Of a stretch of 13,500 nucleotides of DNA, positions 10,144 to 13,437 are shown piece after piece. Source of the DNA: a virus (Duplodnaviria > Heunggongvirae > Uroviricota > Caudoviricetes); IMG/VR virus record IMGVR_UViG_3300032293_000813, positions 151,000 to 164,499 of that record, one strand, 5' to 3'. The first letter of the stretch is position 1; each line of letters starts with the position of its first letter. A program made the position numbers and the translations under genes. The notes under the pieces were generated by a model, which was given only the letters and a program-made list of their open reading frames with translations, did no database searches and was not told the origin of the DNA.

Positions 10144-10190
10144 GGTGGATAGAAAACATCTATCTTCCTTTCGGCACTCCACCGGATGCC
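10144..10190 (-). ncRNA. Candidate pseudoknot RNA, copy A
   Basis: GGCAT-CC-GGTGG-A-GTGCC...GAAG-ATAGA-TGTTT-TCTAT-CCACC; same architecture as 13393-13437. Confidence 0.5.
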
Positions 10191-10195
10191 CACTG

Positions 10196-10269
10196 TGGAC
10201 CAGATAGGAATCGAACCTATTACCTTCGCATTATGAGTGCGCTGCTCTAACCGAATGAGCTACAAGTCC
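10196..10269 (-). tRNA. tRNA with CAT anticodon, probably Ile2 (lysidine type)
   Basis: GGACTTG/CTGGTCC acceptor, A73, GCGCA-CTCATAA-TGCGA; body resembles bacterial tRNA-Ile2; Met not excluded. Confidence 0.85.
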
Positions 10270-10270
10270 A

Positions 10271-10318
10271 TATCGTTTAATCTAACGATAAAATCTGATA
10301 TCGTTTCTTTCAACGATA
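10271..10318. repeat. Tandem inverted repeats TATCGTT-N6-AACGATA (x2)
   Basis: 10271-10290 and 10299-10318; identical 7-bp arms, different 6-nt centres. Confidence 0.8.
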
Positions 10319-10325
10319 AATAAGG

Positions 10326-10445
10326 TGCCGGAGGAGAGATTGGTTACTCACACGATGTCCACTTAGGATACACCACCTTTCTAGAATTACGGTACGTCTA
10401 ATAGTTCTTATTCGAAACTCAAACTATTCTTTCCGCCACTCCGGC
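10326..10445 (-). ncRNA. tRNA-Leu-derived tRNA-like RNA with D-loop hairpin insertion and remodelled T-loop
   Basis: Perfect GCCGGAG/CTCCGGC acceptor + A73-CC; D stem GCG/CGT; inserted AATAGTT/AACTATT hairpin; 17-nt weakly paired anticodon arm; long variable arm; T loop TAACCAAT. Confidence 0.65.
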
Positions 10446-10451
10446 ATATTG

Positions 10452-10525
10452 TGGAGGTGATAGGAGTCGAACCTACTACCCTCTGCGTGCAAGGCAGATG
10501 CTCTAGCCAAATGAGCTACACCCCC
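10452..10525 (-). tRNA. tRNA-Ala(TGC)
   Basis: GGGGGTG/CACCTCC with G3:U70, TCTGC-CTTGCAC-GCAGA. Confidence 0.96.
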
Positions 10526-10637
10526 AATTAATGTAATGTCTGTACGGTTTGTGTCTTATCCACACTTTTATTGTGCTTCATTAGTTTCCATTTCATACTT
10601 AGCGTCCGTTCCGTCATTCTTTCGAATCATTACACCG

Positions 10638-10723
10638 TACCAGAGGTGGGAGTCGAACCCACACGAGCGATTTATGCTCAACAGATTTTAAGTCTGTCAT
10701 GTCTACCATTCCATCACTCCGGC
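10638..10723 (-). tRNA. tRNA-Leu(TAA)
   Basis: GCCGGAG/CTCTGGT, ACAGA-CTTAAAA-TCTGT, long variable arm, A73. Confidence 0.95.
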
Positions 10724-10739
10724 ATCTATTCTAATTATT

Positions 10740-11174
10740 CTAATTTAATTTACTTAATATTACTCCTCTAAGTTTAGTATGATTGTCATCTGGATTAATT
10801 AAGATGTCAATTTTATTTTTCCATCGTGGATTCATTAAATCCCTAACGTAATAAACTCCATTGTATTTTCCAGCATTTGATACTCTTACTTTTTCACCAA
10901 ATTTAAATTTCTTTTTTATATCTCTACTTACCGCAATCACTCTATCTTTTTTAGGATTGTCTTCATCCAATTCAAACCCACTCGCAGTTTCTAATGGAGT
11001 ATCATCAGTTTGTAAAGGGTCAATTGTATATGTAGTCATCGTAACAACAAATTTCTTAACTTCCTTAACAACTTCTTCCTTTACCATAGTTTCAATTGCA
11101 AATGGATTAAGTGTTTTTAAGTTTGTCGGTACAACTATACCAACAATCATTAATACTAATATTAATCTTTTCAT
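10740..11174 (-). CDS. 3D-domain (RlpA-like double-psi barrel) protein with N-terminal signal; putative peptidoglycan-acting enzyme
   Basis: VTMTTY...QTDDTP.ETASG, IAVSRD, FGEKVRV, YYVRD, KIDIL pattern. Confidence 0.75.
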   Translation of the reverse strand: MKRLILVLMIVGIVVPTNLKTLNPFAIETMVKEEVVKEVKKFVVTMTTYTIDPLQTDDTPLETASGFELDEDNPKKDRVIAVSRDIKKKFKFGEKVRVSNAGKYNGVYYVRDLMNPRWKNKIDILINPDDNHTKLRGVILSKLN

Positions 11175-11213
11175 AGTTTATGTTTATGGTTACTAATAAT
11201 TATAACACTTCTG

Positions 11214-11287
11214 TGATTCGGAAAGGATTCGAACCTTTGACCTACTGCTTAGAAGGCAGTTGCTCTATCCAACTGAGCTACCGAACC
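11214..11287 (-). tRNA. tRNA-Arg(TCT)
   Basis: GGTTCGG/CCGAATC, ACTGC-CTTCTAA-GCAGT. Confidence 0.96.
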
Positions 11288-11292
11288 AAATC

Positions 11293-11457
11293 GTTGTTTC
11301 AACTTGCAAGTTTACTCTTAACATCTCTTTCTCTACAACGTCTGAATCTAATCAACATTTGTAGTCCGAATGTAGCTTTTGGGTAATTACTCCAGCGCTT
11401 CTATGTAACTCTATGTGCCTTACTTTGTTACTAAGTGTGTTAAGTGTATGAAACAAC
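11293..11457 (-). ncRNA. Candidate 165-nt multibranched structured RNA between tRNA-Asp and tRNA-Arg
   Basis: Perfect 9-bp closing stem GTTGTTTCA/TGAAACAAC, nested CTTAACA/TGTTAAG, internal CTACAA(A)TGTT/GACGTTGTAG stem, AACTTGCAAGTT palindrome. Confidence 0.5.
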
Positions 11458-11460
11458 TTG

Positions 11461-11534
11461 CGGAATGTATGGGACTCGAACCCATGACCTCATCCGTGAC
11501 AGGGATGCATTCTAACCAACTGAACTAACACTCC
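11461..11534 (-). tRNA. tRNA-Asp(GTC)
   Basis: GGAGTGT/ACATTCC, CATCC-CTGTCAC-GGATG, G73. Confidence 0.96.
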
Positions 11535-11539
11535 AACTG

Positions 11540-11613
11540 AGCCTCCTGTCGGATTCGAACCAACGACCACCTGATTACAAATCAGGAGCTCTGGCCAACT
11601 GAGCTAAGGAGGC
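11540..11613 (-). tRNA. tRNA-Thr(TGT)
   Basis: GCCTCCT/AGGAGGC, CCTGA-TTTGTAA-TCAGG. Confidence 0.96.
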
Positions 11614-11618
11614 AATTT

Positions 11619-11682
11619 ATAGGTGGGGCTTAATTATTTAACTCTGTACCGCCATTAAGTCTTTAATGCTTTAGACACCTAT
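11619..11682 (-). ncRNA. Candidate 64-nt structured spacer RNA
   Basis: ATAGGTG/CACCTAT closing stem, CATTAA-AGAC-TTAATG hairpin whose loop could pair with upstream GTCT. Confidence 0.3.
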
Positions 11683-11684
11683 TG

Positions 11685-12160: not shown

Positions 12161-12167
12161 AACTTTA

Positions 12168-12199
12168 CAAAGATACGAAAAAACATCGATATAACCTAA
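12168..12199 (-). promoter_or_regulatory. Bacteroidota-type promoter
   Basis: TATCTTTG at 12175-12168 within TTTTCGTATCTTTGT; degenerate -33 (TTAG) 20 nt upstream. Confidence 0.7.
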
Positions 12200-12219
12200 T
12201 ATTTCTTCATTTATTTCCG

Positions 12220-12305
12220 CAGAGAGTGAGGGGCTCGAACCCTCGCGGCTTTAACACCCTAACGATTTAGCAAACCGTCCCCTTCACCAACTTGGGTAAC
12301 TCTCT
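12220..12305 (-). tRNA. tRNA-Ser(GCT)
   Basis: AGAGAGT/ACTCTCT, ACGGT-TTGCTAA-ATCGT, long variable arm, G73. Confidence 0.95.
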
Positions 12306-12307
12306 AT

Positions 12308-12384
12308 TGGGGTGTCTAATGAGGTTCGAACTCATTCTATCAGTACCACAAACTGACGTGCTAACCGTTAACACTATAAACACC
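12308..12384 (-). tRNA. tRNA-His(GTG) with encoded G-1 and CCA
   Basis: G-1:C73 pair, TCAGT-TTGTGGT-ACTGA, 3' CCA. Confidence 0.95.
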
Positions 12385-12393
12385 ATTTTAATT

Positions 12394-12660
12394 CTATTCT
12401 TTGGCCGCTTCAGCCCAATTCTCATTAACCATTGACCAATAGTTTTTGTTTAAGTAGATAATATCATATCCACTATCGTTTCTATCTATGAAGATGATTC
12501 CTTTCTTAACCAATGAACCCAACGCTCCTCTGATTGTCTTTGTTGGGATGCCCATTTCTTCACTCAAATCGTTTACATCCACATCTGAATAACCAGGTTC
12601 CGCATATAAACAACTGATGAAAGTACTTAACGTTTTGTCTTCTAACCATGTAATGTTCAT
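12394..12660 (-). CDS. Putative winged helix-turn-helix DNA-binding protein
   Basis: DVNDLSEEMGIPTKTIRGALGSLVKKGIIFIDR: HTH followed by a beta wing. Confidence 0.7.
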   Translation of the reverse strand: MNITWLEDKTLSTFISCLYAEPGYSDVDVNDLSEEMGIPTKTIRGALGSLVKKGIIFIDRNDSGYDIIYLNKNYWSMVNENWAEAAKE

Positions 12661-12679
12661 AACTTTTATATTTTAAGGT

Positions 12680-12919
12680 TTAATAATTATTTCTCTTTGC
12701 ACCGAATGGTAATCTATCATCACACTTAGGTCGTAACATCTTTCGGCCTAGCAACTCCCACTTAGCTCTCTCATATCTCTCCATACTAATAGCACCCATC
12801 TCAATGTGATACTCCATATTCAACTCATAAGGGTCAACACCCGTATAAAGAGCAGTGCTCTCTAAGAAATCAACATACTCAACAACACTCATCAAAGCCA
12901 AATTGGGTAAATTAGTCAT
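12680..12919 (-). CDS. Hypothetical protein (79 aa)
   Basis: First ORF after the promoter at 12955-12986. Confidence 0.65.
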   Translation of the reverse strand: MTNLPNLALMSVVEYVDFLESTALYTGVDPYELNMEYHIEMGAISMERYERAKWELLGRKMLRPKCDDRLPFGAKRNNY

Positions 12920-12954
12920 ATCTTTTATCTTTATGTTTAACTCTTATTACATAG

Positions 12955-12986
12955 TAAAGGTAATACATTTTGTATTAAAAGTCAAG
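12955..12986 (-). promoter_or_regulatory. Bacteroidota-type promoter, variant -7 box TACCTTTA
   Basis: CTTG (12986-12983), 20-nt spacer containing the palindrome AATACA-N3-TGTATT, TACCTTTA; downstream CTTTACTATGTAA identical to the 7056 promoter. Confidence 0.65.
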
Positions 12987-13006
12987 CTTTATTTCATTTA
13001 TTTTTG

Positions 13007-13076
13007 TCGCATGTATGAGGTTCGAACTCATTTGGTCATCCTTATGAGAGATAACTCTTTTCCACTAAGCCATGCA
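13007..13076 (-). tRNA. Degenerate CAT-anticodon tRNA (Met-like; possible pseudogene)
   Basis: Intact T arm ATGAG-TTCGAAC-CTCAT and CTCATAA loop; acceptor TGCATG/CATGCG; about 3 nt missing between acceptor and D arm. Confidence 0.55.
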
Positions 13077-13081
13077 GTTTG

Positions 13082-13152
13082 AGGTGAATATTGGATTTGA
13101 ACCAATGTGAATGGTTTTGCAGACCACCTCCTCGCCTCTCGGACAATTCACC
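13082..13152 (-). tRNA. tRNA-Cys(GCA)
   Basis: GGTGAAT/ATTCACC, GTGGT-CTGCAAA-ACCAT, U73. Confidence 0.94.
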
Positions 13153-13158
13153 CTATTG

Positions 13159-13230
13159 TAGCCCCTAAAGGATTCGAACCCTTACTAAAACATCCGTAGT
13201 GTTTCGTGCTATCCGTTACACCAAAGAGCC
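13159..13230 (-). tRNA. tRNA-Arg(ACG)
   Basis: GGCTCTT/AGGGGCT, AAACA-CTACGGA-TGTTT. Confidence 0.93.
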
Positions 13231-13236
13231 AAATTG

Positions 13237-13307
13237 CACCCCCTGAAAGATTCGAACTTTCATCTGCGGTTTTGGAGACCGATATGCTACCATTGCACCA
13301 AAGAGAT
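13237..13307 (-). tRNA. tRNA-Trp(CCA)
   Basis: ATCTCTT/AGGGGGT with three G:U pairs, TCGGT-CTCCAAA-ACCGC, G73. Confidence 0.92.
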
Positions 13308-13312
13308 GTGTG

Positions 13313-13386
13313 TTGGAATAGATGGACTCGAACCATCGACATTCACCGTATCAGGATGACACTCTAACCAACTGAGTTATATTCCA
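13313..13386 (-). tRNA. tRNA-Ile(GAT)
   Basis: TGGAATA/TATTCCA, TCATC-CTGATAC-GGTGA. Confidence 0.95.
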
Positions 13387-13392
13387 ATAAGT

Positions 13393-13437
13393 GGTGGATG
13401 TATGCTCATCACATACTTCATTGGCTTCCACCGAGCC
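13393..13437 (-). ncRNA. Candidate pseudoknot RNA, copy B
   Basis: GGCT-C-GGTGG-A-AGCC-AATGAA-GTATG-TGATGAG-CATAC-AT-CCACC; same architecture as 10144-10190. Confidence 0.5.

Follow-up and report, generated by a model that had tools for sequence, protein, structure and literature searches.

The last 13.5 kb of a 164,499-nucleotide (nt) viral contig in IMG/VR (record IMGVR_UViG_3300032293_000813; Caudoviricetes; 83% complete) contains an array of tRNA genes. We refer to this stretch of 13,500 nt (positions 151,000 to 164,499 of the record) as the window. It carries 17 tRNA genes, all on the minus strand, and the features described below must therefore be read on that strand. Two spacers of the array each hold a copy of a small RNA element (copies A and B), and each copy is flanked by two co-oriented tRNA genes (Table 1). 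The element is a classic H-type pseudoknot, in which the loop of a first stem (S1) pairs with a downstream strand to form a second helix (P2). It represents a real, conserved and uncatalogued RNA family that is specific to phages.

The pair of P2 words, separated by 8-38 nt, occurs twice in the window, against 0.01 occurrences expected from 200 shuffles. When the full pseudoknot descriptor was run on the 164-kb contig, it recovered copies A and B plus one match within coding sequence; shuffled genomes gave 0-1 matches. An initial annotation, made from the DNA letters alone, had already proposed two pseudoknots beside tRNAs, and all the letters it quoted are present on the minus strand. It located copy A correctly, but its range (10144-10190) was one base short, since the final A lies at 10143. 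Its 5-base-pair (bp) hairpin for copy A has given way to a 6-bp stem with an AGAU loop (10168-10153), which is more likely because it is kept through a compensatory change in a homologue, L136:3400-3453 (locus number and positions). The hairpins of the two copies, which it called unrelated, have a UAGAUG stretch in common.

Table 1. Coordinates of the two pseudoknots, their parts and the adjoining tRNA genes in the window
Feature	Position	Strand	Remarks
Copy A, whole pseudoknot RNA, type II	10143..10190	minus (10190->10143)	sequence always just ahead of tRNA-Gly(UCC)
Copy A S1 hairpin	10173..10190	minus	5' strand 10190-10186, 3' strand 10177-10173; 5 bp, one of them G.U
Copy A S1 loop		minus	L1 10185-10184, P2 5' strand 10183-10179, A10178
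Copy A P2 3' strand	10144..10148	minus	pairs with 10183-10179, then unpaired A10143
Copy A L3	10149..10172	minus	purine run 10172-10169, hairpin, 2-4 nt joiner
Copy A L3 hairpin	10168-10153 (most likely form)	minus	6 bp, AGAU loop
Copy A tail, 8-nt U/A	10135..10142	minus	ends at position +1 of tRNA-Gly
tRNA-Met(CAU), upstream of copy A	10196..10269	minus	CCA not encoded; trailer begins CA
tRNA-Gly(UCC), downstream of copy A	10063..10134	minus	
Copy B, whole pseudoknot RNA, type I, GAUGA-type hairpin loop	13392..13437	minus (13437->13392)	
Copy B S1 hairpin, 4 bp	13423..13437	minus	5' strand 13437-13434, 3' strand 13426-13423
Copy B S1 loop		minus	L1 13433, P2 5' strand 13432-13427
Copy B P2 3' strand, 6 bp	13393..13398	minus	pairs with 13432-13427; unpaired A at 13392 after it
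Copy B side hairpin within L3	13400..13416	minus	5-6 bp stem, conserved loop; L3 purines 13422-13417
Copy B tail, 5 nt	13387..13391	minus	reaches position +1 of tRNA-Ile, the expected RNase P cut
tRNA-Pro(GGG), upstream of copy B	13443..13500	minus	cut off by window/contig end; CCA encoded at 13442-13440
tRNA-Ile(GAU), downstream of copy B	13313..13386	minus	

Family members and distribution

Homologues were sought in IMG/VR with a pattern that combined a tRNA T-loop with the 5' and 3' words of P2 and left S1 and the hairpin free. This tRNA-anchored pattern returned 30 loci, 25 of which have one common architecture. A second IMG/VR scan, in which P2 was free, added six members, including one (L163) with an altered but still pairing P2. 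The corresponding P2-free scan of metagenomes yielded 55 distinct sequences, comprising 32 members and 23 chance matches. A covariance model (R1), to which copy B scores 64 bits (E 2e-15), detected two diverged copies in the fetched loci, L132:2210-2261 and L136:3400-3453; the latter is a diverged homologue of copy A with compensatory changes. L075 carries a copy identical to copy A, and a hairpin-less version of 33 nt lies between tRNA-Gly and tRNA-Gln (L034:1657-1689). Altogether, approximately 35 phage contigs of IMG/VR belong to the family, along with 32 additional distinct sequences from metagenomes.

A control pattern, whose P2 words were altered by one pair, gave 10 matches and no family members. 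Searches with S1 and the P2 5' word alone gave 35 matches, 28 of them known family members and the other 7 chance occurrences in coding sequence. Our first viral pattern, which required both a GAAG word and 8-20 nt following P2, was discarded: it matched more than 117 loci, nearly all by chance, with L075 the only real one, and missed copy B. A match of the model at L121:381-429 (20.7 bits) was dropped because it has no P2 partner. We also observed a hairpin-less near-twin at L262:2389-2419 (plus strand), whose S1 and P2 are identical to those of L034 but which is situated between two open reading frames (ORFs), in 7 kb free of tRNAs. This twin could have arisen by chance or indicate that the core family also occurs outside tRNA arrays.

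According to whole-record searches, a genome carries one or two copies. This also holds for all four complete genomes, which belong to freshwater jumbo phages of 308-322 kb (one with terminal repeats). The sequencing runs that contain window DNA are freshwater and lake metagenomes from many studies. The family is restricted to phages and is essentially absent from prokaryotic genomes and from GenBank phages. Across 185,579 prokaryote species, 46 places matched the tRNA-anchored pattern, and the only family member among them lies on a 2.7-kb contig of a Bacteroidetes metagenome-assembled genome. Neither type I nor type II matched GenBank phages, and megablast with the whole window found tRNAs only. 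No model of Rfam 15, including hepatitis delta virus (HDV), pistol, hatchet and twister ribozymes, preQ1-I/II/III, S-adenosylmethionine (SAM)-II and fluoride riboswitches and ToxI, matched over either copy at E<=10 with permissive filters. The view that this is an unrecognised tRNA-associated pseudoknot is thus borne out. A type III antitoxin similar to ToxI, i.e., tandem knots beside an endoribonuclease toxin gene, was also considered, but the knots occur as single copies between tRNAs, two in 164 kb.

Conservation of the fold

Family members share a common layout. S1 has 4-5 bp, a loop (L1) of 1 nt (2 in copy A) leads into the 6-bp P2, and 0-1 nt separate the 5' strand of P2 from the 3' strand of S1. 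The next loop (L3) consists of 4-7 purine-rich bases, a hairpin of 4-7 bp and a joiner of 0-3 nt before the P2 3' strand. P2 is followed by an unpaired A in 26 of the 26 curated members. A 1-nt L1 over a 6-bp helix and a purine-rich L3 along a helix of 4-5 bp are standard stereochemistry for H-type pseudoknots.

In an alignment of 37 distinct sequences, 98.6% of the cells in the three helices hold standard pairs, compared with 34-50% when partners are slid by 1-3 columns, and the observed covariation was reached by none of 500 shuffles. Four of the five pairs of the side-hairpin stem changed on both sides. P2 underwent five compensatory events at three positions and no disruptive changes: the outer pair is G-C replaced by U-A in L132:2210-2261 and by A-U in L136:3400-3453, the inner pair changed from A-U to G-C in L132:2210-2261 and L034, and the third pair changed from U-A to G.U in L163. 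S1 occurs in seven different paired versions across the family; the S1 columns of copy B hold 5 bp of other sequence in relatives. Relative to copy A, two S1 pairs are changed in L136:3400-3453 and both are still paired. The same homologue supports a copy A hairpin of 6-7 bp with an AGAU loop, in which a G.U pair is replaced by C-G and pairing is kept. The covariation of stem 1 and the pairing of its loop with the terminal strand, both put forward in the initial annotation, hold, with compensatory changes in S1, P2 and the hairpin.

Compensatory changes in three helices, together with near-identity of the element in spite of differing flanking genes, show that the fold is under purifying selection. 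The knot can do without the side hairpin, as L034 lacks one. When folding was restricted to nested structures, z-scores were weak (-0.8 to -2.2), since S1 and P2 exclude each other once knots are disallowed. The core of type I is nearly invariant, with the same P2 in 31 of the 32 distinct metagenome sequences, while the hairpin stem drifts. The type I hairpin loop, in copy B (window 13405-13411) and in relatives, can be read as a GAUGA pentaloop closed by U-A or U.G. Such a loop could resemble phage boxB hairpins, in which one base is flipped out of a GNRA-like fold. Elsewhere in the genome, hairpins carrying the conserved loop word were not enriched.

Placement among tRNA genes

The knot begins 3-5 nt after the discriminator of the upstream tRNA in all members but one, and the next tRNA follows 4-9 nt after the knot in every tRNA-linked member for which a next tRNA was called. 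Plain tRNA-tRNA spacers in the window measure 5-6 nt. Since the spacings around the knot resemble plain spacers, it fills its slot as a tRNA gene would. The short gap to the next tRNA is kept even in L136:3400-3453, whose upstream tRNA is 38 nt away; a sigma-70 promoter was sought in this 38-nt stretch and none was found. The initial annotation had the motif lying directly downstream of a tRNA, but this is not a constant feature, given L136:3400-3453 and the L262 twin. The downstream partners are tRNAs for Met, Lys, Ile, Gly, Glu, Trp and Gln, and the upstream partners are those for Gln, Cys, Pro, Met, Gly and Glu. Such variety fits an independent gene better than a helper of one particular tRNA.

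Contigs from two metatranscriptome runs bridge the tRNA-knot-tRNA junctions of both copies, a weak indication, as these RNA data are assembled contigs of depth 3-7 that carry no information on ends, strand or level. Small shares of the window occur in six metatranscriptomes, four of which were compared with it as contigs; one contig skips 61 nt at copy B.

Several features of the arrays concern the tRNA ends themselves. In approximately 440 tRNAs (minus strand of window positions 8900-13500 and loci L121-L168), CA, usually CAA, directly follows the discriminator in 280 cases. Nearly all tRNAs in these arrays have no encoded CCA, with a few exceptions such as tRNA-His and the tRNA-Pro at 13443-13500. 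The CA behind the discriminator does not count as a motif element, as it trails nearly every tRNA in the arrays. We also rejected the idea that the knot is an obvious tRNA fragment, as no array tRNA has an acceptor stem matching P2. A gene of the CCA-adding family is present in two of the four complete relatives and not in this contig, which makes its pattern uninformative.

Other structured RNAs appear to be encoded in the same arrays. A conserved tRNA-like RNA of ~68 nt, often located after the knot in the jumbo phages, was found at L224:1555-1625 (plus strand) and in the same place in L225, L228, L229 and L234. Its anticodon loop reads CAU, its D arm is shrunken and its T loop is non-canonical; it received no ARAGORN call. 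Further long spacers on the minus strand of the window, i.e., 11614-11684 (71 nt), 9983-10062 (80 nt), 11288-11460 (173 nt) and 10270-10451 (182 nt), have closing helices and look like additional structured RNAs; none matches R1 or Rfam. Beside the tRNA array, window positions 2124-6402 (minus strand) encode an Rnl1-type RNA ligase, a P-loop kinase, a calcineurin-like phosphoesterase and an ATP-dependent DNA ligase, as identified with Pfam. This co-oriented ligase/kinase/phosphoesterase cluster looks like an RNA healing-and-sealing set. A GroEL-type chaperonin gene occupies positions 3-1175 (minus strand; Cpn60_TCP1, E 9e-47).

A candidate small RNA gene proposed to be processed with the tRNAs

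Our tentative preference, held with somewhat less than even confidence, is that each copy is a small non-coding RNA gene whose product would be cut out by tRNA-processing enzymes and act after excision. The route we propose draws on established knowledge of bacterial tRNA maturation. The knot would be transcribed together with the tRNAs of the array. Its 5' end would be freed by 3'-end cutting of the preceding CCA-less tRNA, 3-5 nt ahead of the knot. RNase P, acting on the next tRNA at position +1, would generate the 3' end of the product 4-9 nt past the knot. The predicted product is an RNA of ~50 nt that is almost wholly a compact H-type pseudoknot. In this model, S1 (4-5 bp) would stack on P2 (6 bp), a single-nt L1 would span the deep groove of P2, and the purine-rich L3, bearing the side hairpin, would run along the minor groove of S1. 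The short tail and the buried 3' strand should keep out 3'-to-5' exonucleases, and a long-lived RNA is therefore expected.

Two known cases offer partial parallels. The species 1 and 2 RNAs of phage T4 (rnaC and rnaD) are small stable non-tRNA RNAs that lie in a tRNA cluster and are matured by tRNA-processing enzymes; they are 120-140 nt long and are not known as H-type knots. In MALAT1 and MEN-beta, a compact purine-rich structure located just upstream of an RNase P site protects the new 3' end. The knot differs in that it precedes a genuine tRNA rather than the tRNA-like mascRNA, is a pseudoknot rather than a U.A-U triple helix, and would protect an RNA of ~50 nt.

The coaxial stack of the knot has the shape of an acceptor/T-arm minihelix of a tRNA and ends in an unpaired A, and enzymes that read tRNA ends may see the RNA as a substrate or a decoy. 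RNase P cleaves H-type pseudoknots and tRNA-like structures of the turnip yellow mosaic virus (TYMV) type in vitro (PMC12710915). These cleavages, together with the likeness of the knot to the TYMV acceptor-arm knot, make recognition by tRNA-end enzymes plausible.

Several points weigh against this interpretation. The metatranscriptome contigs show no RNA ends and could reflect DNA carry-over. A mimic of the acceptor end predicts a discriminator followed by a CA trailer, or CCA, but the tails after the unpaired A are mostly A/U-rich. The stack has 10-11 bp, not 12, and a T-loop is lacking. The near-invariance of S1 and P2 in type I exceeds the needs of pairing and suggests a further constraint on the core, e.g., base triples, a protein or a ligand. 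Finally, several unrelated pseudoknot families occupy similar slots, which could equally fit a generic role in cis.

Alternative explanations

Such a role in cis is the most serious competitor, although we consider it less likely than the preferred reading. The knot would then be an element of the precursor, a few nt ahead of an RNase P site, that blocks exonucleases or Rho, insulates the folding of the adjacent tRNAs, or tunes their cutting by RNase P or RNase Z. The nuclease block and the processing element listed in the initial annotation are still candidates. This would explain why the constant feature is the distance to the next tRNA, and it agrees with the dispensability of the side hairpin in L034. 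Moreover, strong H-type knots end 9 of 76 other tRNA-tRNA spacers of 30-100 nt in these arrays (shuffle mean, 1.25), among them a second covarying pseudoknot family that precedes tRNA-His and tRNA-Asn. On the other hand, knot-free gaps of only 5-6 nt separate most of the tRNAs in these arrays, so that processing can do without it, and only one or two copies occur per 17-25+ tRNAs. The sequence of the knot is also nearly fixed while the neighboring tRNAs differ between phages.

The second H-type family is unrelated to the knot. It is 63-65 nt long with an embedded hairpin, its S1 and P2 covary between members, and it fills the whole spacer in L241, L242 and L245 (before tRNA-His), in L233 (before tRNA-Asn) and in L238 (before tRNA-Ile).

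A more specific proposal is that the knot is a phage mimic of the acceptor/T-arm that is handled in vivo by RNase P, RNase Z or the CCA-adding enzyme, and that it might serve as a long-lived decoy or sponge for host factors or for defence toxins that attack tRNA 3' ends. By analogy with the TYMV-type acceptor arm, in which a hairpin loop likewise pairs with the 3'-terminal strand, the knot has a coaxial stack of 10-11 bp, an unpaired purine at its end and, in most members, an ACCA-like ending. Unlike the viral structure, it has no anticodon or T-arm domains, both of its stems are longer, it is encoded between tRNA genes rather than at the end of an RNA genome, its CCA is not conserved, and only one 3' base is unpaired if P2 is fully formed. 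The 3'-CCA mimic suggested in the initial annotation fails as a general rule, as L132:2210-2261, L136:3400-3453 and L163 end otherwise and still pair. We regard this proposal as improbable.

A new small ribozyme that would do the job of theta ribozymes with a different core, cleaving itself and so trimming the upstream tRNA at its 3' trailer, is very unlikely. Theta ribozymes are minimal HDV-like ribozymes found beside phage tRNAs (PMC10879173), and their descriptor reads P1, J1/2, P2, a 3-bp P3 with L3, P1', GG, L4, a CUAA-type J4/2 and P2' (Kienbeck et al. 2024, PMC10879173). The initial annotation had noted that the motif lacks the P3 of HDV-like theta ribozymes, which is exact by this descriptor. 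The niche is the same, a nested P1/P2 double pseudoknot in a phage tRNA array that starts within 5 nt of a tRNA 3' end in all members but one, and so are the strand order (P1 5', short joiner, P2 5', P1 3', P2 3') and, approximately, the size. In addition, the Rnl1-type RNA ligase, kinase and phosphoesterase encoded 4-8 kb away could heal ends made by a ribozyme. However, the catalytic parts are absent. The knot has neither P3 (3 bp of the ACC/GGU type in theta) nor its L3, with 0-1 nt between the P2 5' and S1 3' strands in every member. S1 is followed by a run of A/G, mostly A, instead of the GG of P1.1, which in theta pairs with CC in L3. The catalytic C that opens J4/2 is missing: type I members have a G or an A as joiner, copy A has a longer one, and no C is conserved there. 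Its P1 is 4-5 bp rather than 6-7, it has a true P4-like hairpin in place of a short L4, and it comes from freshwater jumbo phages rather than gut phages.

The variation within the family points the same way. No unpaired position is invariant, which argues against a small ribozyme and also against a ligand pocket: L1 may be any one of the four bases or CC, L3 may consist entirely of A, and the joiner ahead of the P2 3' strand is G, A, CA or longer. One homologue lies 38 nt from the upstream tRNA, and no Rfam ribozyme model matched at E<=10. As the terminal CCACCA is not universal either, the small ribozyme and the CCA mimic, both listed in the initial annotation, are unlikely.

A ligand-binding aptamer of the preQ1-II, SAM-II or fluoride type, which would sense a metabolite and change how the adjacent tRNA is processed, has even less to recommend it. 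Like preQ1-II and frameshift pseudoknots of the SRV-1 (simian retrovirus-1) type, the knot has an L1 of 1-2 nt over a 6-bp S2 and an A-rich L3, the hairpin within L3 being a feature of preQ1-II, and its helix sequences are conserved beyond the needs of pairing, as in groove-binding aptamers. In contrast to these RNAs, it lies outside mRNA and has no Rfam match (riboswitch models included), conserved ligand-pocket bases, downstream ORF or slippery site. Its L1 is one nucleotide long and variable, no expression platform is present, and in the members without a hairpin or with a variant P2 the fold is preserved although the sequence is not.

Hardly credible is a functionless, decayed relic of a tRNA gene or HDV-like ribozyme: the backbone does equal that of HDV/theta minus P3 and phage tRNA arrays do contain tRNA debris, but compensatory changes in all three helices and near-identity across phages with differing flanking genes are not what such a relic would display.

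Implications

Phage tRNA arrays are usually annotated as tRNAs separated by junk spacers, and here a spacer is a conserved structured RNA gene. The knot has been kept in jumbo phages of many lakes, is essentially absent from cells, and has the backbone of theta ribozymes without their catalytic core. At the least, the family merits an entry in Rfam. Excision by RNase P and RNase Z would mean that tRNA punctuation also serves phages in the production of other stable RNAs. Whether RNase P meets pseudoknot substrates in vivo is a question raised in PMC12710915. If the knot is a mimic of tRNA ends, it would answer that question and, as an RNA handled by this enzyme, be the first natural pseudoknot substrate of bacterial RNase P; phages would then have a novel type of RNA tool in their contest with hosts over tRNAs.

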